Source: Promethearchaeota archaeon Loki_b31
GTDB taxonomy: Archaea > Asgardarchaeota > Lokiarchaeia > Sigyniarchaeales > SOKP01
Reading direction: 5' to 3'
Length of the DNA stretch: 11,257 nucleotides
Assembly (NCBI GenBank): GCA_005222975.1
Contig: NJBI01000084.1
Location: forward strand, 1-11,257
Positions 1 to 11,257 of this stretch are shown here, one piece after another. Every line of letters starts with the position of its first letter. Position 1 is the first letter of the stretch. The position numbers were made by a program, and so were the translations under genes. Under the pieces are notes generated by a model that was not told the origin of the DNA, did not search any database, and worked only from the letters and a program-made list of their open reading frames with translations.

Positions 1-382
1 TCAGTTCTTTAAAGTAAAAATATAGAAAGGCTACCAGAAAAGGTGAAAGAATAACAATAAAGATCCATGTATCTTCCACGAGATCAAGAATAATACCGCC
101 GCCGATTACAACAAAAAGCGCTAAAATATGCCAAAAAATTTGGAGTTCTACCGCTAATTTTGCAGTATCCCAATTTTTTCTTAGATACGCGATTAAGGAA
201 GTTGAGCCATATGTCATTAAAGAAACACCAAGCATTCTTCCTACTATGGGATCATCAAAAGGCCAAGCTACAAATTCTATGTACCACTCGGTGAAAAAGA
301 GGTATGTTATGCCGTAAATATAACCTACAATGAATTCTAAAATAAATAAAATCTTTAATCCTTTTGATATTTCATTAACCAT
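1..382 (-). CDS. Hypothetical multi-pass (~4 TM) membrane protein, 3'-partial (runs off the left edge)
   Basis: Manual translation from ATG at 382: MVNEISKGLKILFILEFIVGYIYGITYLFFTEWYIEFVAWPFDDPIVGRMLGVSLMTYGSTSLIAYLRKNWDTAKLAVELQIFWHILALFVVIGGGIILDLVEDTWIFIVILSPFLVAFLYFYFKEL. It has 127 codons with no stop and four hydrophobic segments. It is absent from the ORF track, presumably because it has no stop in the window. Confidence 0.85.
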   Translation of the reverse strand, partial: MVNEISKGLKILFILEFIVGYIYGITYLFFTEWYIEFVAWPFDDPIVGRMLGVSLMTYGSTSLIAYLRKNWDTAKLAVELQIFWHILALFVVIGGGIILDLVEDTWIFIVILSPFLVAFLYFYFKEL

Positions 383-2351: not shown

Positions 2352-5105
2352 ATGACTGAATCTAAAGAAACAAAAAGTGTTAAAAAAGAAAGGTCTAAAA
2401 TTTATAGTGAAATCATTAATAAAGTAATAGCTAACGCTAATTATTGTTACGATTGTAATCGTTGTGTTAACGTATGTCCTACAAGTTTTTTAGGTACATT
2501 TTTTCCAAGAAAATTGATTACTGATTTGACTTTCCTACCGCTAGAGGAAGCGTTAGAAAACAATAATATTTGGAACTGCTTGACTTGTGGGCAATGCATG
2601 GAGTATTGTCCTATGTTTAAGGATAATACTGGTGTAGATTTTGTAGAAATCATTAAAAGTCTCCGCACACTTACTTCCGAATCTGAAGTTTTACAGACGG
2701 AACAACTTGAATGTCATCACGATAGAGTATATTCAAGTTTACCTCAATTAATGGCAAATGACAATGTTAGTATCGATAACAAACTCGGGTTTTTAGATTA
2801 CACTAATTTAAAATTTACAGACAAAGGGGAAATCGCCTATTTTATGGGGTGCCTTCCTTTTATGAATTCCATTCCTCCGTGTTCTAATGCGTGTCCCGCA
2901 GGAGTTGATGTTCAAGGTTATATCTCATTAATTTCGGAAGGTAAATTTCAAGAAGCTATTGATTTAATTAGGGAAAGCAACCCTTTTCCTATGATATGTG
3001 CGCGAGTTTGTACGGAGCCTTGTGCGCTTGAATGTAATCGTAAAGATATCGATGAAGCTCTTGGTATTCGATCCTTAAAGAGATTCATCGCAGATTGGGA
3101 ATTAAACAACAAAGCAAAATCCAATATTAAACCAGTTAAGCAATTTAAGGACAAAATAGCGATAATAGGTGCTGGTCCCGGAGGGTTATCCGCAGCTTAC
3201 TTTTTAGCGAGACAAGGTTATAAACCTACTGTGTTTGAAGCAGAAATCTATAAAGGAGGGACTTTACGATCTGGGATTCCAAGATATCGTTTACCTGCCT
3301 ACATTTTAGATTATGAAATTGACTTTATCGAAAAAATGGGAGTTGAAATAAAATTAAATACTCCCATAGGACCTAAATTATCTTTTGAAAATTTAGAAAA
3401 ACAGGGCTATAAAGCCTTTTTTATCTCGATAGGGCAGCAGACTTGTTTAGGGCTCAAAATGGAAGGAGAGAACCTTAAGAACGTTTTATGCGGTCTAAAT
3501 TTTCTCAAAGATAAAAATTTAACAAAAAAACAATTTGATTTCAAAGATAAAATTATAGGCGTAGTAGGTGGAGGAAATGTTGCTATGGATTCTGCAAGAA
3601 CTGCTTTAAGATTAGGTGCTAAGAAAGTTGTAGTGATTTATCGTCGTTCTGAAAAGGAAATGCCCGCTCAAGAAGAAGAAATTGAAATGGCAAAGGAAGA
3701 AAATGTTGAGTTTCAATTTTTAACAAATCCAACAAAAGCAATCGGAGATCAAGAAGGAATTCTTAAAGAAATAGAATGTATTCGGATGGAGCTTGGTGAA
3801 CTAGATAAATCTGGTCGGAGAAGACCAATTCCTATAGAAGGATCAGAGTTTAAAATGAACCTTGATTTTCTGCTACTTGCTATTGGACAAGGTACAGAAT
3901 TAACGCTTTTAGAAGCTGCTCATGGCCAATTAGAAATAGATCGGTGGGGGAGAATTATAACGGACGAATTAACAATGCAAACTAATGTTCCTAACATTTT
4001 TGCAGGGGGAGATGTAATCCCAGGCGAAGGAATAGCTGTTAGAGCCATAGGAAATGGAAATAATGCAGCGATTTCTATTGATAAATATCTTAGAGGCGTT
4101 GATTTAAAGAAAAATAGAGTCATTAGAAAGTATTCTAAACTTGCTCCGATACCTAAAAAAGAAGCCAGTAAAATGCCCAAAGAATGTATAGACTTGTTGC
4201 CTATACAAGAAAGATTAAGAAGCTTTAATGAGGTCGAATTACCTCTCACGGAAGAAAGTGCAATCAAGGAAGCAAGTCGGTGTTTAAATTGCAATATTTG
4301 TTGTAGTACAGATCAAAAATTAGATGTTTATGTAAATTCATGCGATGAATCTAATGTTCAAGATTGTAGTTATGGTATACAACCCGTTGTTCCTTACTAT
4401 AACGCGTTGGATTTCCTTAAGATTCCAAGAGTAGTTATAGGTCTTTTAAACCAAAAAGAAATAGTGCCTGTAGTTCTTTCAAACGAAAAATGTTGTGGAC
4501 ACGATAGTTTATGGCAAGGAGATATTGATACATTTGAAAAGTTAGCAAGACACAATGTTCAGTTATTCAACGATGCTGGAGTAAAAACATTAATACTTAG
4601 TTGTGCTGAGGGTTATCATACATGGAAATACGAGTATCCAAAATTATTTAAAGGAACTGATGAGTTTAACTTTGAGATTTATCATGTAACAGAGTACATC
4701 CTAAAGGAACACTTAATAGACGATGTTAAATTCCCAATTTCTGAAAAAATTAGAGTTACATATCACGACGCATGTAGATTAGGACGATTGGGTAATGTTT
4801 ACGATGCACCCCGCGAAGTATTAAATAAGATTCCATTCATTGAACTAATTGAGATGGAGAGTAATAAAAAAGACGCTTTATGTTGTGGAGTTTCTGCTTA
4901 CATAAGTTGTAATGAGTACTCAAGAGAGATTCAAGCTACCCGTATTAAAGAGGCGATCGATACTGGTGCCGAATATCTAATTGTTAGTTGCCCCAAGTGT
5001 TTAGCCCACTTTAATTGTTATTTGAACGAAGAAAAAGAATTAAAAAACAAAATTAAAGTCGTGGATCTAACAAGCTTTATTGGTAAACTCTTGTTTCTCA
5101 ACTAA
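2352..5105 (+). CDS. Heterodisulfide-reductase-like (HdrC + 2 CCG domains, HdrD-type) protein with an inserted GltD/NfnB-like FAD/NADPH oxidoreductase module
   Basis: HdrC-type motifs CYDCNRCVNVCP and WNCLTCGQCMEYCP. CCG start YFMGC (C167). GltD-like motifs PPCSNACP, CARVCTEPCALEC, GAGPGG, GIPRYRLP, GGGNVAMD, YRR and EASRCLNC. CCG motifs EKCCGH...SCAEG and YHDAC...CCG...SCPKC. Confidence 0.9.
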   Translation: MTESKETKSVKKERSKIYSEIINKVIANANYCYDCNRCVNVCPTSFLGTFFPRKLITDLTFLPLEEALENNNIWNCLTCGQCMEYCPMFKDNTGVDFVEIIKSLRTLTSESEVLQTEQLECHHDRVYSSLPQLMANDNVSIDNKLGFLDYTNLKFTDKGEIAYFMGCLPFMNSIPPCSNACPAGVDVQGYISLISEGKFQEAIDLIRESNPFPMICARVCTEPCALECNRKDIDEALGIRSLKRFIADWELNNKAKSNIKPVKQFKDKIAIIGAGPGGLSAAYFLARQGYKPTVFEAEIYKGGTLRSGIPRYRLPAYILDYEIDFIEKMGVEIKLNTPIGPKLSFENLEKQGYKAFFISIGQQTCLGLKMEGENLKNVLCGLNFLKDKNLTKKQFDFKDKIIGVVGGGNVAMDSARTALRLGAKKVVVIYRRSEKEMPAQEEEIEMAKEENVEFQFLTNPTKAIGDQEGILKEIECIRMELGELDKSGRRRPIPIEGSEFKMNLDFLLLAIGQGTELTLLEAAHGQLEIDRWGRIITDELTMQTNVPNIFAGGDVIPGEGIAVRAIGNGNNAAISIDKYLRGVDLKKNRVIRKYSKLAPIPKKEASKMPKECIDLLPIQERLRSFNEVELPLTEESAIKEASRCLNCNICCSTDQKLDVYVNSCDESNVQDCSYGIQPVVPYYNALDFLKIPRVVIGLLNQKEIVPVVLSNEKCCGHDSLWQGDIDTFEKLARHNVQLFNDAGVKTLILSCAEGYHTWKYEYPKLFKGTDEFNFEIYHVTEYILKEHLIDDVKFPISEKIRVTYHDACRLGRLGNVYDAPREVLNKIPFIELIEMESNKKDALCCGVSAYISCNEYSREIQATRIKEAIDTGAEYLIVSCPKCLAHFNCYLNEEKELKNKIKVVDLTSFIGKLLFLN

Positions 5106-5240: not shown

Positions 5241-6902
5241 TTAAACTAAGATTTTTATTTCCTCGCCGAATACTATCTTATTAGCAATTTCAAAAGCGAT
5301 ATTGTAATCAAAGACTTTTTTACCTTTTGTCTTTAAAGCTTTCTTAAAGATTTCCCTCTCAATTTTGTATTTTAATCGTCCTATGTTAAGAGCACCTATC
5401 GCATAAATACCAGGATAGAACTCCGTATTATAATAGTCTGGTTTCATTCCTTCTATTCCATAGGGAGGAACCAAATTAATATCTACGACAATTTTATTTG
5501 GAGGAAGTTGGTTCATTAATTTTTTTGAGATCATTTGGACTCCTGCTTTACCAACAGACCATATTATATCTGCGTCCCTCACTATTTTCAGATATTGTTC
5601 ATCTGAATTTGCTGGCTCTCCTATAATCTTAGTGGCACCTCTTCCTGCCTTCTTAGTCAAATCTTTTGCCAATTCTTTTACGAATTGTTCTCTTCTTGAA
5701 GTAATGACTACTTTTGCTTTAAGTTTTGAAGCAATTAGAGCGGAAATTTGCCCTACAGGGCCAGTTCCTCCTAAACAAATTATCTTTTTACCTGATAAAT
5801 CTGAAAATCCATGTTTTCTTGCAACCTCTAGTGTTTTTGCAACTATTGCTGAAGCTGTTGTATGAGAACCACGTGGATCTATAATTACAGGAGATTCAAA
5901 TGGAGGAATAATTGTTTTCAAAACTTCCTCCGCAATTTTTTCACTTTCTATAACATCAGAACCACCAACAAAATAAACTGAAGAAGCTCCCGCTTTTCGA
6001 GAGAACATAGCATCTTGAACTAGCCTTGAGACGCTGTCTGCTTTCATTCTAGAATATGGTATTACTATATCAAATCCCGCATCATAGCCCATATTTGTAT
6101 CAAAAGGAGAACAATACTCATCCGTATCAAAAAAGTATAAAATTCTTTCTTCTTTTTCTTTTTTTATAACTTTTATAGGCATTATTTCAAGTATAGATCT
6201 ATTCAATAAGTCATTAATCGATGTTTCTTCATCAGGATATTCTGTAACTTTCTTAAGATTAATTATTTCAATTCCTATATCCAATTCTTTAGCTAAAAAT
6301 GTGATGCCATCAAAATGACTTTTATCAGTAATAAAAAATGCTTTTAATTGGTTTTTTTCTTGTTTTTTGGCTAATTCTAAGATAGTCATCATCATCCAAG
6401 CTTCACGGACTTTATATCTTATTTCATCTTCTTGTGCTTTGAAATCATCTTTTAATAATTGTTTCCAAATAATTAACTGTTGAAAATTAGGATCGTTATA
6501 ATGTACACGACCCATTTTTTTATAACTTTCAATCTCTTCTGTGATTTTTTTTATAAAACCTTTCTTATCCATTAGTGGTGCTGAAATTACATTTAATGCA
6601 TAATCCGGAATATCCACAAATTCATATGGGATATCTGCATTTAGAAAAATCGCTCCAAATTCATCATCAATAGATGGTTCTTCACTTGAACGCATTCCTT
6701 TATCTTCTACTACGAAATTAGGGCGGTATTTGTTCACTAAATCTTTAATAAATTCTATGTACGCCCTAGAAACAAAAAATAAATTACCCAGTATTCCTTC
6801 TTCTTTTGGTAATTCTAAAGCCCAATCTATCCTAAATTCACTCTCAACTAATATTAATTTAAGTTTTTTTTCTTTTAATCGTTTTAATTCTAAAACTTGC
6901 AT
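5241..6902 (-). CDS. NAD(P)-dependent methylene-H4MPT (or -H4F) dehydrogenase, MtdA/MtdB family, with an additional ~215-aa N-terminal domain
   Basis: The C-terminal ~300 aa (5241-~6150) has SPFDTNMGYDAGFD..IPY, VQDAMFSR, PPFESPVIIDPRGSHTTA, the Rossmann motif GGTGPVG and DINLVPPYGIEG. The start is placed at ATG 6902 (MQVLE) because GGAGG lies 10 nt upstream and it aligns with the paralog's MEVLE. The alternative ATG 6911 overlaps the upstream stop (ATGA). Confidence 0.88.
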   Translation of the reverse strand: MQVLELKRLKEKKLKLILVESEFRIDWALELPKEEGILGNLFFVSRAYIEFIKDLVNKYRPNFVVEDKGMRSSEEPSIDDEFGAIFLNADIPYEFVDIPDYALNVISAPLMDKKGFIKKITEEIESYKKMGRVHYNDPNFQQLIIWKQLLKDDFKAQEDEIRYKVREAWMMMTILELAKKQEKNQLKAFFITDKSHFDGITFLAKELDIGIEIINLKKVTEYPDEETSINDLLNRSILEIMPIKVIKKEKEERILYFFDTDEYCSPFDTNMGYDAGFDIVIPYSRMKADSVSRLVQDAMFSRKAGASSVYFVGGSDVIESEKIAEEVLKTIIPPFESPVIIDPRGSHTTASAIVAKTLEVARKHGFSDLSGKKIICLGGTGPVGQISALIASKLKAKVVITSRREQFVKELAKDLTKKAGRGATKIIGEPANSDEQYLKIVRDADIIWSVGKAGVQMISKKLMNQLPPNKIVVDINLVPPYGIEGMKPDYYNTEFYPGIYAIGALNIGRLKYKIEREIFKKALKTKGKKVFDYNIAFEIANKIVFGEEIKILV

Positions 6903-6907
6903 TATTT

Positions 6908-7537
6908 TCATCCCTCCTTTAACATTACGATTGATTTTAATTTCTCTTCTCGAATATCATATTTTATGACTTTGATATTATATTCTTCAAATAATTTTTT
7001 CAGTTCAGAAATTAAATCTTCATGAGCAAAATGGATTATAGATAAATTATCATTTTTGATGTTATTTACAACATCTAATATTTTTTTTACAATCCATTTT
7101 GGTTTTATGGTATATTCTAATAAGTTTTTAGTATATTCCACTTTATCTTTTAACAAATATATCCAAGAGTTTAAGCTCTGAGCTTTAAATGTGTCTTTTT
7201 TATTATTCAAAAGAAGTTTTTCATATTCTTGCTCTAATTCTTCTATCTGTACTTCCAAGTCTAAAAGCTCAACATAAAAATAAGATTTAATACTTTCAGG
7301 GATTTCAACTTCGTAATAAGGCAAATGGAATTTCTCTATAAACTCTGATAAAGGAGTTTGATAATATTTTTTAACATCGGGATCGTTAAAATCAACAATT
7401 GCAAACTTAAATTTTTCTGCTTCTATGATTTTTTCTAAATTACTATTATGTAAACTTAATAAATCTCTGTCTTCTCTTCTTATTAAATAGATATTAACCG
7501 TTTTATTTTTTATAGGATGAAACTCTAAAACTTCCAT
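6908..7537 (-). CDS. Hypothetical protein (209 aa), stand-alone paralog of the N-terminal domain of the downstream Mtd fusion
   Basis: Long ORF abutting the next gene, with collinear similarity by eye: MEVLE/MQVLE, LPYYEVEIPE/IPYEFVDIPD and QSLNSWIYLLKD/QQLIIWKQLLKD. Confidence 0.85.
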   Translation of the reverse strand: MEVLEFHPIKNKTVNIYLIRREDRDLLSLHNSNLEKIIEAEKFKFAIVDFNDPDVKKYYQTPLSEFIEKFHLPYYEVEIPESIKSYFYVELLDLEVQIEELEQEYEKLLLNNKKDTFKAQSLNSWIYLLKDKVEYTKNLLEYTIKPKWIVKKILDVVNNIKNDNLSIIHFAHEDLISELKKLFEEYNIKVIKYDIREEKLKSIVMLKEG

Positions 7538-7654
7538 TGAATTAACGCATTAATAATTAATTTAATTTCTTTTACTATAGAACAATTTTAGACAGAAATA
7601 TTATAAATATTCGGATAAACATATTTTTATCTCATTTGACAAGAATAATTGTTA

Positions 7655-7690
7655 TTATCAAAAATAAAATTATCATAATTTTTCTTATCA
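7655..7690. promoter_or_regulatory. Candidate operator in the divergent intergenic region: TTATCA x3 at 15-bp period, with an 8-1-8 palindrome
   Basis: TTATCA at 7655, 7670 and 7685. AAAATTAT-C-ATAATTTT at 7666-7682. Confidence 0.3.
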
Positions 7691-8026
7691 AGTTTTTTTA
7701 ATTGTTAAATGATGAAATTTAATAATCTAATCTTTTTTTCTATGATCTTTTTTAATTTTAATTATCTAAATGTGTTGTAGAAGATTTAAATTTTTCAAAA
7801 TATTGATTAAATCACAAATAGGAACGATTATACTAAGTTGGGAGACTTCTTCAGAGCTTAATCTTACTATCATCAACCTTCTAATATAATTCTTCTTTAT
7901 ATTATCGATTCTGAACTTTTAACTTCTTCTTATTAATAATCATTAATTTAAAAATATCTAAGTGATTCTAAATCCTATAAGAAGAGATTATAAACTTATA
8001 ATATTAAAAAATTTGATGACTTAAAA

Positions 8027-8911
8027 TTGCCATTCGAAATTTTAGAGAAAAGAGAACTTGGGACTAGTGGTATAGTGTTTGAAATGATAATATCTACTCC
8101 TTTAATCGCTCGAAAAGCGTATGCGGGAAATTTTATATTACTAAGAATCAATGAAACTGGAGAACGGTTTCCATTAACCATTGCAGATTACGATCGAGAG
8201 AAAGAAACGATAACTATAGTATTTCAAGTTGTTGGAAAAAGCACGAAATTACTCTCACATTTAGAAGTAGGGGATATGATACTTGATGTAGTGGGGCCTT
8301 TAGGAAATGAAATTCATATAAAAAAGTACCAATATCCCGTAGTGATAATTGGAGGTGGTGTGGGTATTGCACCATGCTACCCTCAAGCAAAAGAATTAAA
8401 GGAAGCAGGAAATAAAGTTATTTCGATATTAGGTGCTAGAAATACCGAATTATTGTTTTGGAAAGACAAAATGAGCTCAGTAAGCGATGAATTAATTATT
8501 TGTACAGATGACGGAAGCGAGGGGATTAAAGGAGTTGTCACTGTACCACTTACAGAAATAATGAAAAGAGAAAAAATAAGCATTGTTATCGCAATTGGAC
8601 CTTTAATAATGATGAAATTTGTTGCTCTTACAACTAAAGGGTCTGGCGATTTACCTAAAGTAAAAACATTTGTCTCCCTAAACACAATTATGATTGACGG
8701 AACTGGAATGTGTGGCGGTTGCCGCTTTTCAACGCTTAACGGAGGAGTTCAATTTGCGTGTGTTGATGGTCCCGATGTCGACGGTCATATCGTAGATTTT
8801 GATAATCTATTGAAACGCGCTAATAGATTTATTGATCAAGAGAAGGAGTCCTTAGAATGTTACAACGAAGAATGTAGAGCTTTAAAAAAACTTAGGAGTG
8901 AAGTGTCTTAA
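8027..8911 (+). CDS. nfnA: NfnA/SudB (FNR/PyrK-like FAD, NAD and [2Fe-2S] small subunit of NADH-dependent reduced ferredoxin:NADP+ oxidoreductase)
   Basis: Motifs GERFPLTIAD, VVGKST, DVVGPLG, GGGVGIAP, TDDGSEG, IGPLIMM and the Asp/Cys [2Fe-2S] motif MIDGTGMCGGCR...ACVDGP. TTG start, directly upstream of an NfnB-containing gene. Confidence 0.92.
   Translation: MPFEILEKRELGTSGIVFEMIISTPLIARKAYAGNFILLRINETGERFPLTIADYDREKETITIVFQVVGKSTKLLSHLEVGDMILDVVGPLGNEIHIKKYQYPVVIIGGGVGIAPCYPQAKELKEAGNKVISILGARNTELLFWKDKMSSVSDELIICTDDGSEGIKGVVTVPLTEIMKREKISIVIAIGPLIMMKFVALTTKGSGDLPKVKTFVSLNTIMIDGTGMCGGCRFSTLNGGVQFACVDGPDVDGHIVDFDNLLKRANRFIDQEKESLECYNEECRALKKLRSEVS
8894..8901 (+). promoter_or_regulatory. Shine-Dalgarno-like site AGGAGTGA for the gene starting at 8913
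   Basis: Lies 11 nt upstream of ATG 8913, inside the 3' end of nfnA. Confidence 0.55.
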
Positions 8912-8912
8912 A

Positions 8913-11257
8913 ATGGAAAAGCAAAGATCTTTAGTTAAAATATTACTTAAAAATAAAGAACAGATTCTGGAGTCAGGAAAATATAACGAGGCAGAATTTG
9001 GAGATTTAATTAGCGAGTTAACCGATGTAGAGCGTTCTAGACAAGAAATTCTAGAAAAAATAGAAGAACATGGCTCTATTGATATTCCTAAATTGAAAAA
9101 AGAACTACAATTATCAGAAAAAAATCTGTTATGTAATATTGAGTATCTAAAAGAGTTAGGCTTTTTAGGATTTATTGGGGAGAAACCAAGGTTTTTTCAA
9201 GATGTAGTAGAAATTTCTAAACAAAACGGTATTTTTCCTAATGTAACAATAATTAAAGACAAAAATCTGTGCAATGGTTGCGGTTTATGTGCTTCCATTT
9301 GTCCAGTTGGAGCAATAAACTATTCGGAGGGGACATTTGATTTTGACGAAGAAATGTGCATTGATTGCGGGTTATGCTATACTTGCTGTCCACGAACATT
9401 CTTTCCGAAGGTTTTAGAGGCCCCTGAAGAAAACAATGCTCCTGATATTAAATTTTTAGAGCAATTCAATTATTATCAGGAAATTTGTACTGCTCAAACA
9501 ACTGATGAAAGAATAATAGCAGTTGCTCAAGATGGAGGAATTGTGACTACGCTGCTGAAAATGGCGTTTCAACAAAAATTAATCGACGGTGCTTTAGCTG
9601 TAAAAGAAGGAGAAGAACCTCTAAAACCGTTACCACATTTAATTGAAGATGAAGATGAACTCCTACATACAGCAGGGACAAAATACACAAATGCTCCTAT
9701 TTTAAAAATATTTCAAGGCTGTAGGGGTCACGATAAATTTGCAGTAGTGGGTACCCCTTGTATCATGAAAGCGCTTAAAAAAATTTCATTTTTTCCGTTT
9801 AATAGACCATTTTGTGATAAGATTGCTTTAAAGATCGGATTGCTTTGCATGGAATCGTTTGATTACAAAAAAATTGGTGAACTTTTAAAAAATGAGTTTA
9901 AATCTACTCCTGCTGATGTTAAGAAAATGGATATTAATAAAGGGCGTTTTATAATCTACGATCATAACGGTTCTGCTTTTGATGTTCCAATAAAAAAAAT
10001 TAAAAAGTATGGTCGGTTCGGTTGCTTTTTTTGCGACGATTTGACATCGATACATGCTGATATTTCCGTAGGATCTATTGGTTCTGATCCTGGCTGGTCA
10101 ACGGTATTTATACGGACTAAACGAGGTGCTGAATTCTTTCAAAAAGCTTTGGATCTTAATATGATCGTTAAGAAGGAGATTAAAGAAGATAGTAAAAGTT
10201 TTGAATCTCTAAGTAGAATAGCAAAATCTAAATTAAAGAAGTTTGAAGAATATCATCGCCCAAAGATGATTGAACAAGACCCCAATATTAGGAAAAATAA
10301 CTTTGAAGAGGTTCCTAAGGGATTGACTATTGATATGGTCAAGTTAGAAACACATAGATGCTTACAGTGTGGAGACCCGCTCTGTGTTACTGGATGCCCC
10401 GTTAACATAAGAATTCCTCAATTTATAAAATTATTGAAGCAAGAAAAATATATTGGGGCTCTATACGAAATAAAATCATATAATTTATTGCCCGCTATTT
10501 GTGGAAGAGTTTGTCCGCAAGAATCTCAATGTGAAAAATATTGTTTATTAAGTGGTCTTGGGGAACCAATTGCAATAGGATATATGGAAAGATTCATCGC
10601 AGACTGGGAAAGAGAAAATAATCTTAAAGAGTGTCCCGAATGCGCAGCTCCTAAAGGTATTAAAGTTGCAGTTATAGGTTCTGGACCGGCGGGTTTAGCT
10701 TGTGCTGGAGAACTTGCGATGAATGGCTACGATGTCACTATATTTGAAGCGTTTCATGCTGGTGGAGGTGTATTAACTTACGGAATTCCAGAGTTTAGGT
10801 TGCCAAAAGATATAGTCAAAAGCGAAATTGAGACTTTAAAGATGTTAGATGTTAAAGTTGAATATAACGTAATTATTGGTAAAACTTTAACGATCGATGA
10901 TTTGAAAGAACTGGGATTTAAAGCCTTTTTTATTGGAGTTGGAGCAGGACTTCCAATATTTATAAAAATACCGGGAATAAACTTAAACGGCGTCTTAACT
11001 GCTAACGAATTCCTCACTCGATCGAATTTAATGAAAGGTTTTAAGTTCCCTGATTACGATACTCCTATTAAAATTGGAAAAATAGTAACTGTTATAGGAG
11101 GGGGAAATGTCACTTTAGATTCCGCTAGAACCGCTTTACGATTAGGTGCTGAAAAGGTTATTATTGTTTATCGTAGGTCCGAAGTAGAGATGCCTGCGAG
11201 AAGAGAAGAATATCATCACGCTTTAGAAGAAGGCGTTGTTTTTCAATTCTTAACAAA
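8913..11257 (+). CDS. nfnB: Fusion protein, 3'-partial (at least 781 aa): helical/wHTH domain + 2x[4Fe-4S] ferredoxin + FrhB (FpoF/FqoF-like F420-binding) + NfnB/SudA large subunit
   Basis: One open frame from ATG 8913 to the edge. Ferredoxin: CNGCGLCASICP (9270) and CIDCGLCYTCCP (9357). FrhB: AQDGGIVT, AGTKY, VVGTPC, IGLLCMESF and GCFFCDD..ADISVGSIG..GWSTV. NfnB from ~10257: RKNNFEEV, RCLQCGDPLCVTGCP, ICGRVCPQESQCE, GSGPAG, YGIPEFRLP, GGGNV and YRR. Confidence 0.92.
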   Translation, partial: MEKQRSLVKILLKNKEQILESGKYNEAEFGDLISELTDVERSRQEILEKIEEHGSIDIPKLKKELQLSEKNLLCNIEYLKELGFLGFIGEKPRFFQDVVEISKQNGIFPNVTIIKDKNLCNGCGLCASICPVGAINYSEGTFDFDEEMCIDCGLCYTCCPRTFFPKVLEAPEENNAPDIKFLEQFNYYQEICTAQTTDERIIAVAQDGGIVTTLLKMAFQQKLIDGALAVKEGEEPLKPLPHLIEDEDELLHTAGTKYTNAPILKIFQGCRGHDKFAVVGTPCIMKALKKISFFPFNRPFCDKIALKIGLLCMESFDYKKIGELLKNEFKSTPADVKKMDINKGRFIIYDHNGSAFDVPIKKIKKYGRFGCFFCDDLTSIHADISVGSIGSDPGWSTVFIRTKRGAEFFQKALDLNMIVKKEIKEDSKSFESLSRIAKSKLKKFEEYHRPKMIEQDPNIRKNNFEEVPKGLTIDMVKLETHRCLQCGDPLCVTGCPVNIRIPQFIKLLKQEKYIGALYEIKSYNLLPAICGRVCPQESQCEKYCLLSGLGEPIAIGYMERFIADWERENNLKECPECAAPKGIKVAVIGSGPAGLACAGELAMNGYDVTIFEAFHAGGGVLTYGIPEFRLPKDIVKSEIETLKMLDVKVEYNVIIGKTLTIDDLKELGFKAFFIGVGAGLPIFIKIPGINLNGVLTANEFLTRSNLMKGFKFPDYDTPIKIGKIVTVIGGGNVTLDSARTALRLGAEKVIIVYRRSEVEMPARREEYHHALEEGVVFQFLT

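Follow-up and report, generated by a model that had tools for sequence, protein, structure and literature searches.

A lokiarchaeal NfnB fused to a ferredoxin and FrhB-type module: a candidate F420-linked, NfnAB-type transhydrogenase

The 11,257-nt stretch of DNA analysed here (the window) is the entire contig C73 (NJBI01000084.1) of the metagenome-assembled genome (MAG) of Promethearchaeota archaeon Loki_b31, an assembly of 3.52 Mb in 99 contigs that is 92% complete with 6% contamination. The 3' end of this contig carries nfnA, encoding the small subunit of an NfnAB-type (NfnSL-type) transhydrogenase, followed at a distance of one nucleotide by a gene that joins a ferredoxin and FrhB-type F420-reductase module to NfnB. 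On balance we favour the reading that NfnA and this fusion protein form an NfnSL-type electron-bifurcating complex, in which the built-in module replaces or supplements free ferredoxin. Such a complex would probably link NADPH, NADH and F420, and would likely be a departure from free ferredoxin as the low-potential substrate. The features of this locus are the following:

8027..8911, + strand: nfnA (NfnS-type small subunit), 294 aa with a TTG start; FAD/NAD-binding, [2Fe-2S] cluster on Asp + 3 Cys
8913..11257, + strand: fusion gene (long-FrhB + NfnB), open frame, 781 of ~909 codons, 3'-truncated at the contig end
8913..9233, + strand: N-terminal helical domain, ~107 aa, with a sub-motif resembling a helix-turn-helix (HTH) or winged helix (family conservation, AlphaFold (AF2) model)
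9249..9398, + strand: ferredoxin-type domain, 2x[4Fe-4S], two CxxCxxCxxxCP motifs (Fer4_6, Fer4_7, Fer4_10; Pfam 118-167)
9489..10250, + strand: FrhB-type F420-reductase domain (FAD + [4Fe-4S]), complete with its C-terminal helix (Pfam, alignments)
10242..10289, + strand: junction/linker from the FrhB tail to the NfnB N-terminus (4ylf_B alignment from residue 448)
10290..10622, + strand: NfnB Fer4_20 domain, two [4Fe-4S] clusters of the low-potential branch (Pfam 465-575, 127.5 bits)
10662..11257, + strand: NfnB FAD/NADPH-binding domains, bifurcating-FAD site (Pyr_redox_2 589-783, cut at the contig end)

Pfam residue numbers on the fusion are counted from an upstream GTG at 8898, and subtracting 5 converts them to numbering from the ATG. 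The TAA stop of nfnA occupies 8909-8911, and the single base 8912 separates it from the fusion ATG at 8913; the two genes are thus adjacent and co-oriented, the gene order of NfnAB/NfnSL. The fusion frame runs without stops through 11257, the last base of the contig, and the ~128 final codons of NfnB that lie beyond the contig end are present in full-length relatives.

The NfnA and NfnB parts could be assigned with high scores. NfnA matched NCBIfam NF004862 with 362.7 bits, the small subunit of P. furiosus NfnI (5jca_S) with 281.9 bits and 4ylf_A with 247.1 bits. It has the PyrK-type FAD/NAD domains of Nfn small subunits, and keeps, in alignment with 5jca_S, the [2Fe-2S]-carrying segment DGTGMCGxCR...CVDGP (DGTGMCGGCR in the window). 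The NfnB part matched T. maritima NfnB (4ylf_B) with 548 bits at 54% identity and 5jca_L with 506 bits, versus 268 bits for true GltD, and residue 4 of the T. maritima protein aligned with residue 448 of a full-length fused relative. Structure superposition of the AF2 model on 4ylf_B gave a TM-score of 0.83, again at 54% identity. The two-cluster Fer4_20 domain and the GltD-type FAD/NADPH domains of Nfn large subunits are in place, and the GxGxxG and NADPH-type YRRS...EMPA motifs are readable in the window and invariant in relatives. These matches make the C-terminal half a genuine NfnB/NfnL; a search of the MAG yielded no second canonical NfnB. The pair therefore resembles canonical NfnAB/NfnSL in its two-gene operon, in the Asp + 3 Cys [2Fe-2S] site of NfnA and in the domains of NfnB with all their ligands, and differs from it in that the fusion adds ~447 N-terminal residues (helical, ferredoxin and FrhB domains, in this order) at the ferredoxin-interaction end.

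Within this addition, the FrhB domain is complete. FrhB_FdhB_N (residues 198-271, 77.8 bits) and FrhB_FdhB_C (residues 279-430, 137.3 bits) exceeded their Pfam gathering cut-offs of 22 and 23.3 bits, and M. barkeri FrhB (6qgr_B) aligned with 190 bits over residues 10-271 of its 291-residue chain, with its four cluster Cys and all its conserved motifs in register with the module. The ferredoxin and FrhB domains together matched 8riu_B (179 bits), 8rja_E (171 bits) and Fsr (7NP8/7NPA, 144-159 bits), the ferredoxin domain of the fusion aligning with those of 8riu_B, 8rja_E and Fsr 7npa_A. All 11 matches with a solved structure belong to F420-dependent enzymes (Frh, Fsr, FdhB or the Ethanoperedens reductases), as subunits or as domains. 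The equivalog cut-offs were missed for PRK09325 (259.6 vs 269), TIGR03289 (231.1 vs 331.5) and the FpoF model NF040616 (154 vs 475). Judged by these profiles, the module is a member of the FrhB family that is an orthologue neither of hydrogenase FrhB nor of FpoF.

The ~107 residues that precede the ferredoxin domain are conserved throughout the family and were modelled as helices with a pLDDT (predicted local distance difference test) of about 90. Pfam searches of this domain up to E = 10 returned sub-threshold matches to HTH_Mga, SelB-wing_3 and CggR_N only, and a Foldseek search with the isolated domain model gave no match below E = 1.4. Taken as a whole, residues 1-447 of the fusion have a counterpart in a "long FrhB" of ~480-510 aa that stands alone: the MAG's own stand-alone FrhB paralogue (G000:C17:21184-22566) matches fusion residues 13-453 at 37% identity, N-terminal domain included, and further stand-alone proteins of this size appeared in an exhaustive search of representative proteins. 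A first-pass annotation of the window, made by a model from the sequence alone, had described nfnA followed after 1 nt by a single FrhB-NfnB frame, and the sequence together with the Pfam, NCBIfam and PDB matches bears this out. Its domain boundaries (aa ~115-440 for ferredoxin plus FrhB, ~449 onwards for NfnB) are right to within a few residues, and all of the domains it proposed to scan for (FrhB_FdhB_N/C, Fer4_20 and Pyr_redox_2) were matched; its list of ferredoxin, FrhB and NfnB domains stands, and lacked the conserved N-terminal helical domain.

The fusion is a real gene under selection, as its conserved relatives, its occurrence in many genomes and contigs bridging the junction all indicate. 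A word-indexed search of 5.8 billion proteins found ~90 clusters in which proteins of ~902-935 aa show this architecture (57-93% identity), the closest full-length relatives being 909 aa long and 92-93% identical. Those with a named source come from Lokiarchaeota/Promethearchaeota MAGs, and their database names are only "NADPH-dependent glutamate synthase" or "F420 hydrogenase beta subunit C-terminal domain". Among 32 aligned full-length relatives all 20 cluster Cys are invariant: eight in the ferredoxin domain, four in FrhB (C283, C312, C371, C374) and eight in Fer4_20 (C483/486/491/495 and C530/534/540/544, along with E541; P0003 numbering). The junction at ~10242 is crossed, with no indel and no joint, by contigs from three independent sequencing studies (X2, 9893-10613; X3, 9924-10489; X7, 9977-10416). 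Contigs from a metatranscriptome library (X16) cover parts of the gene only, one of them 10177-11033, at ~96% identity; they are a weak hint of expression, as they come from a relative and may include DNA.

A junction-spanning query, run against 400 species genomes of the Asgard phylum (135 of the window's own family and 265 of other families), gave end-to-end matches to frames of 910-938 aa in 58 of the 135 own-family genomes. These comprise 24 of 41 genomes of the window's genus and 5/5, 4/6, 1/2, 1/1, 4/10 and 19/54 in six other genera. The gene does border on the end of a contig, and the MAG has some contamination, which might suggest an assembly artefact or a decaying pseudogene; such an origin has a negligible probability and is refuted by the same stop-free frame in 58 genomes and ~90 protein clusters and by the contigs of three studies across the junction. 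The same evidence disposes of the stop or misjoin at 10200-10260 about which the first-pass annotation had been cautious.

In an exhaustive HMMER scan of 1.84 billion representative proteins (50% identity), exactly one of the best 150 matches spans the junction, the others listed being FrhB-only or NfnB-only. The fusion is one tight, lineage-restricted family. Its place behind nfnA is kept as well: in loci L016, L017, L025 and L027, whose fusions go down to 57% identity, a 294-aa nfnA orthologue precedes the fusion gene by 1 nt, and at L026 this position is taken by a frame of 130 aa that the contig end cuts short. A few family genomes (G175, G226, G239, G265 and G209) carry two fusion genes each, with frames of ~915-922 and ~929-938 aa (929 and 913 aa in G226). 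In G175 the two genes (G175:C211:66284-69865) are ~2.8 kb apart on the same strand, a spacing that marks them as tandem paralogues.

In canonical NfnSL, as known from structures of the T. maritima and P. furiosus enzymes, the large subunit's bifurcating FAD is reduced by NADPH. From there one electron reaches NAD+ by way of the small subunit, with its [2Fe-2S] cluster and FAD, while the second moves over the proximal and then the distal [4Fe-4S] cluster of the N-terminal domain and is delivered to a docked ferredoxin. We propose that the fused complex would work along the same lines. NADPH would bind at the bifurcating FAD of the NfnB core; one electron would travel over the [2Fe-2S] cluster and FAD of NfnA to NAD+, and the other into the two [4Fe-4S] clusters of NfnB. 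There the tethered 2x[4Fe-4S] ferredoxin domain would take it up in place of free ferredoxin and hand it on to the [4Fe-4S] cluster and then the FAD of FrhB, where hydride would be exchanged with F420. Summed up, the reaction would be 2 NADPH + NAD+ + F420 <-> 2 NADP+ + NADH + F420H2, and the F420H2 formed would feed the F420-dependent steps of the tetrahydromethanopterin (H4MPT) Wood-Ljungdahl pathway. Of this scheme, the domains, the cofactor ligands, the operon with nfnA, the conservation across the family and the F420 genes are observed; that electrons cross between the modules, that the substrate is F420, that the reaction is coupled to NAD+, and its direction are what we infer. That the ferredoxin domain stands in for free ferredoxin would be the most economical reading, by analogy with the Ethanoperedens enzymes described below.

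Oxidation of NADPH with reduction of F420 is the more likely physiological direction, because the transfer of low-potential electrons to F420 would be downhill, as in the Ethanoperedens precedent, because Wood-Ljungdahl steps consume F420H2, and because NADP-type dehydrogenase genes lie beside the operon in relatives (glutamate dehydrogenase (GDH) in L025, Iso_dh in L027). The opposite direction given in the first-pass annotation (F420H2 + NADH -> 2 NADPH) would be harder to drive than with ferredoxin, and is thermodynamically less comfortable. That the complex is a strictly coupled three-way hydride exchanger, serving as the main F420-charging route of these Lokiarchaeia that lack Frh and Fno, is possible, and we regard it as rather doubtful.

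The closest solved precedent is found in Candidatus Ethanoperedens, whose carbon monoxide dehydrogenase (CODH) and Fwd complexes carry subunits made of a ferredoxin domain and an F420-reductase (FAD, one [4Fe-4S]) that divert these ferredoxin-linked enzymes to F420 (PMC11493965). This rewiring was established by biochemistry and crystallography, with the module acting as a sink for low-potential electrons (PMC11493965). The CODH zeta subunit (8RIU) and FwdI (8RJA) of Ca. Ethanoperedens thermophilum have the same ferredoxin and FrhB-type module, but as separate subunits docked on CODH or Fwd, whereas here the module is fused to NfnB and has an additional N-terminal helical domain; their hosts are CO2-forming oxidoreductases, and the host of the fusion is a bifurcating transhydrogenase. 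Fsr, a sulfite reductase that depends on F420, likewise has an N-terminal ferredoxin and FrhB fused in-chain to a catalytic redox domain; unlike in the fusion, F420H2 there donates to a high-potential siroheme site and there is no bifurcating flavin. NfnB modules have been combined with a bifurcating enzyme in the HdrA-NfnB insertions of ANME-1 (PMC9012536), and F420 with flavin-based bifurcation in the F420H2-dependent HdrA2B2C2 (PMC6085437), but both have an HdrA host and a heterodisulfide partner and lack an FrhB-NfnB junction. Known modules and a known wiring principle are met here in a new host enzyme.

A survey of Nfn enzymes in 2019 distinguished four architectures, none of them with FrhB or F420 (PMC6405883), so that the fusion would be a fifth. 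We could not find a solved or named counterpart of the FrhB-NfnB combination in the PDB, and in the literature searched on FrhB/FpoF with NfnB/GltD and on Asgard F420 and Nfn, where coverage of subscription journals is thin, the fusion is undescribed. This agrees with the first-pass annotation, which knew of no characterised Nfn of this kind.

The gene content of the MAG bears on the availability of F420. We were able to find cofE, cofD, cofG and cofH, each above its curated cut-off, which answers the question of F420 biosynthesis that the first-pass annotation had raised, and an F420-dependent methylene-H4MPT dehydrogenase (Mtd) on C58 with 349 bits. For Fno the best match in the MAG had 25 bits, FrhA had no match above cut-off, and only sub-threshold Mer-like genes were present. 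The organism thus makes and uses F420 but lacks the two textbook enzymes that reduce or exchange it, Frh and Fno, and the lack of both means that other F420-reducing routes are needed in the MAG. The H4MPT-type Wood-Ljungdahl pathway of Lokiarchaeia has F420-dependent steps, which puts the route of F420 reduction in question when Frh and Fno are lacking, and the fusion offers a concrete, assayable candidate for this link. If it is coupled to NAD+, its low-potential branch would end on a hydride carrier of ordinary potential, and the enzyme would probe why bifurcation is used at all.

Several observations weigh against the F420-coupled bifurcating complex, and part of them come from the distribution, for which the first-pass annotation had suggested a survey by taxon. 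The fusion is absent from all 265 Asgard genomes of other families, where the NfnB part occurs alone in ~460-500-aa frames, and the fusion-free genomes include single-contig genomes of 4.4 and 6.0 Mb from the sister family. Within the window's own genus, three genomes have the same locus (917-aa gene, nfnA, nfnB) with an unfused nfnB at 82% identity. In two of these, L021 and L022, the in-frame DNA before nfnB still encodes what is left of the FrhB tail, its last ~35 residues (IVKKKIEEDSKS...), a deletion scar that marks a secondary loss of the module. With orthologues of the same genus and synteny lacking it, two of them scarred, the F420-reductase module is dispensable in close relatives. 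In a FastTree tree of the NfnB parts, in which 90 rows are classed as fused, unfused rows are nested at ~10 places within the fused clade, a loss count that is approximate since the tree has a midpoint root only. The simplest reading is that the fusion arose once, close to the base of the family, and was then lost repeatedly. The unfused orthologues, some with the scar, also provide a natural control pair for the fused enzyme.

Energetics and the co-occurrence of F420 genes add to these points. The standard potentials of NADPH, NADH and F420 are nearly equal, at about -320 to -340 mV, so that bifurcation would waste the energy of the low-potential electron; hydride transfer of the Fno type would give the same net chemistry, and bifurcation would gain nothing more. 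Fno and the fusion would overlap in what they achieve, a link between the F420 and NADP pools, but Fno is a small, unrelated Rossmann enzyme that transfers hydride directly. Fno-like genes (TIGR01915) are sub-threshold only among the 135 family genomes, and they follow genus g12 (48 of 54 genomes, including most of its fused ones) and are missing in 39 of 41 genomes of the window's genus, fused or not. Since they coexist with the fusion in g12, the two are not simple substitutes, and the idea of the fusion as a replacement for Fno fails because the Fno-like genes do not complement the fused state. Nor is cofH associated with the fusion (51/58 fused vs 65/77 other family genomes); loss of the module shows no association with loss of F420 synthesis. 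Both comparisons are neutral towards F420 coupling, although either could have supported it.

Among other explanations, the one we take most seriously, while holding it to be unlikely, is a four-way hub: free ferredoxin would still dock, FrhB would form a side branch, and reduced ferredoxin, F420, NAD and NADP would be interconverted, for example by a reduced-ferredoxin:F420 oxidoreductase activity alongside the usual reaction of Nfn. The core of NfnB is unaltered, with 54% identity to the T. maritima protein, and the unfused orthologues at 82% identity presumably use ferredoxin, so that the docking surface need not be lost. A soluble FrhB/FqoF has been proposed as a ferredoxin:F420 oxidoreductase in related archaea (PMC10667645), which also counts for the hub. 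A covalently tethered ferredoxin domain, however, is expected to occupy the docking site or to compete for it.

It is less probable still that the FrhB-like module does not use F420, and is instead an extra FAD/Fe-S transfer or scaffold unit, or serves another acceptor. The FrhB-family proteins HCAR and BciB react with other acceptors, the best NCBIfam FrhB models (PRK09325 and TIGR03289) scored below their curated cut-offs, and 7 of the 58 fused genomes have no cofH match. The incompleteness of MAGs can explain these missing matches, and the full-length alignment with M. barkeri FrhB at 190 bits, the origin of all 11 solved matches in F420-dependent enzymes, and the F420 biosynthesis genes and Mtd of the MAG all speak for F420. 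That the protein is not an Nfn at all, its GltD/NfnB-like part serving the large subunit of a glutamate synthase (GOGAT; an F420-dependent GOGAT) or the 917-aa protein encoded upstream, we consider highly improbable. The database name "NADPH-dependent glutamate synthase", a 414-bit match to TIGR01316 gltA, the glutamine synthetase (GS) and GDH genes around the operon in L025, and the synteny of the 917-aa Fer4_20/Pyr_redox_2/CCG gene in close relatives would fit it. Yet true NfnB/NfnL are far better matches than GltD (548 vs 268 bits), nfnA keeps its 1-nt spacing in four complete relatives, and the 917-aa gene is absent in L025 and L027. The GOGAT version was rejected since the MAG has no convincing GltB partner, PF01645 giving only a partial 32-bit match, on C78.

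The C78 locus itself (G000:C78:116714-123096) has two frames in succession: the first, of 1035 aa, contains a GltD-like domain that shares 35% identity with the NfnB part, and the second, of 527 aa, matches Glu_synthase (the FMN barrel) weakly and in part. This frame pair may be an oxidoreductase pair of the DPD/GltD-like type.

The surroundings of the operon vary between relatives. A SNF2-type helicase gene follows the fusion gene in L016, the operon of L025 has GS and GDH genes on its flanks, and Iso_dh lies beside that of L027. In L026 (3270-8953, - strand) the operon adjoins a pair of [NiFe]-hydrogenase large and small subunit genes and an 851-aa HdrA/MvhD(FlpD)-like gene. In L017 and in the unfused loci L021-L023, the 917-aa gene immediately precedes nfnA and has the same orientation.

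In the window, a ~490-bp intergenic stretch of ~22% GC (7538-8026) separates nfnA from a divergent 209-aa gene, and is presumably the promoter region of both. The other genes with an assignment are:

2352-5105, + strand: 917-aa protein with a 2x[4Fe-4S] domain, Fer4_20, Pyr_redox_2 and two CCG (HdrB/HdrD-type) domains
5241-6911, - strand: 556-aa protein with Mpt_N (N-terminal domain of MtdA/B type methylene-H4MPT dehydrogenase) at residues 269-346
1122-1994, - strand: 290-aa open reading frame (ORF), partial AMP-binding match covering only profile positions 170-345 of 384

The 209-aa gene (6908-7537, - strand) overlaps with the Mpt_N gene at the latter's stop and is kept in L016; like the 99-aa and 127-aa ORFs at 647-946 and 2-382 (both - strand), it has no Pfam match. 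In the 556-aa protein, ~250 N-terminal residues without assignment precede Mpt_N. The 917-aa protein is GltD/NfnB-like, with 44% identity to the NfnB part of the fusion, and may be an NADPH-linked disulfide reductase. The 290-aa ORF may represent a truncated or split acyl-CoA/adenylate-forming enzyme.

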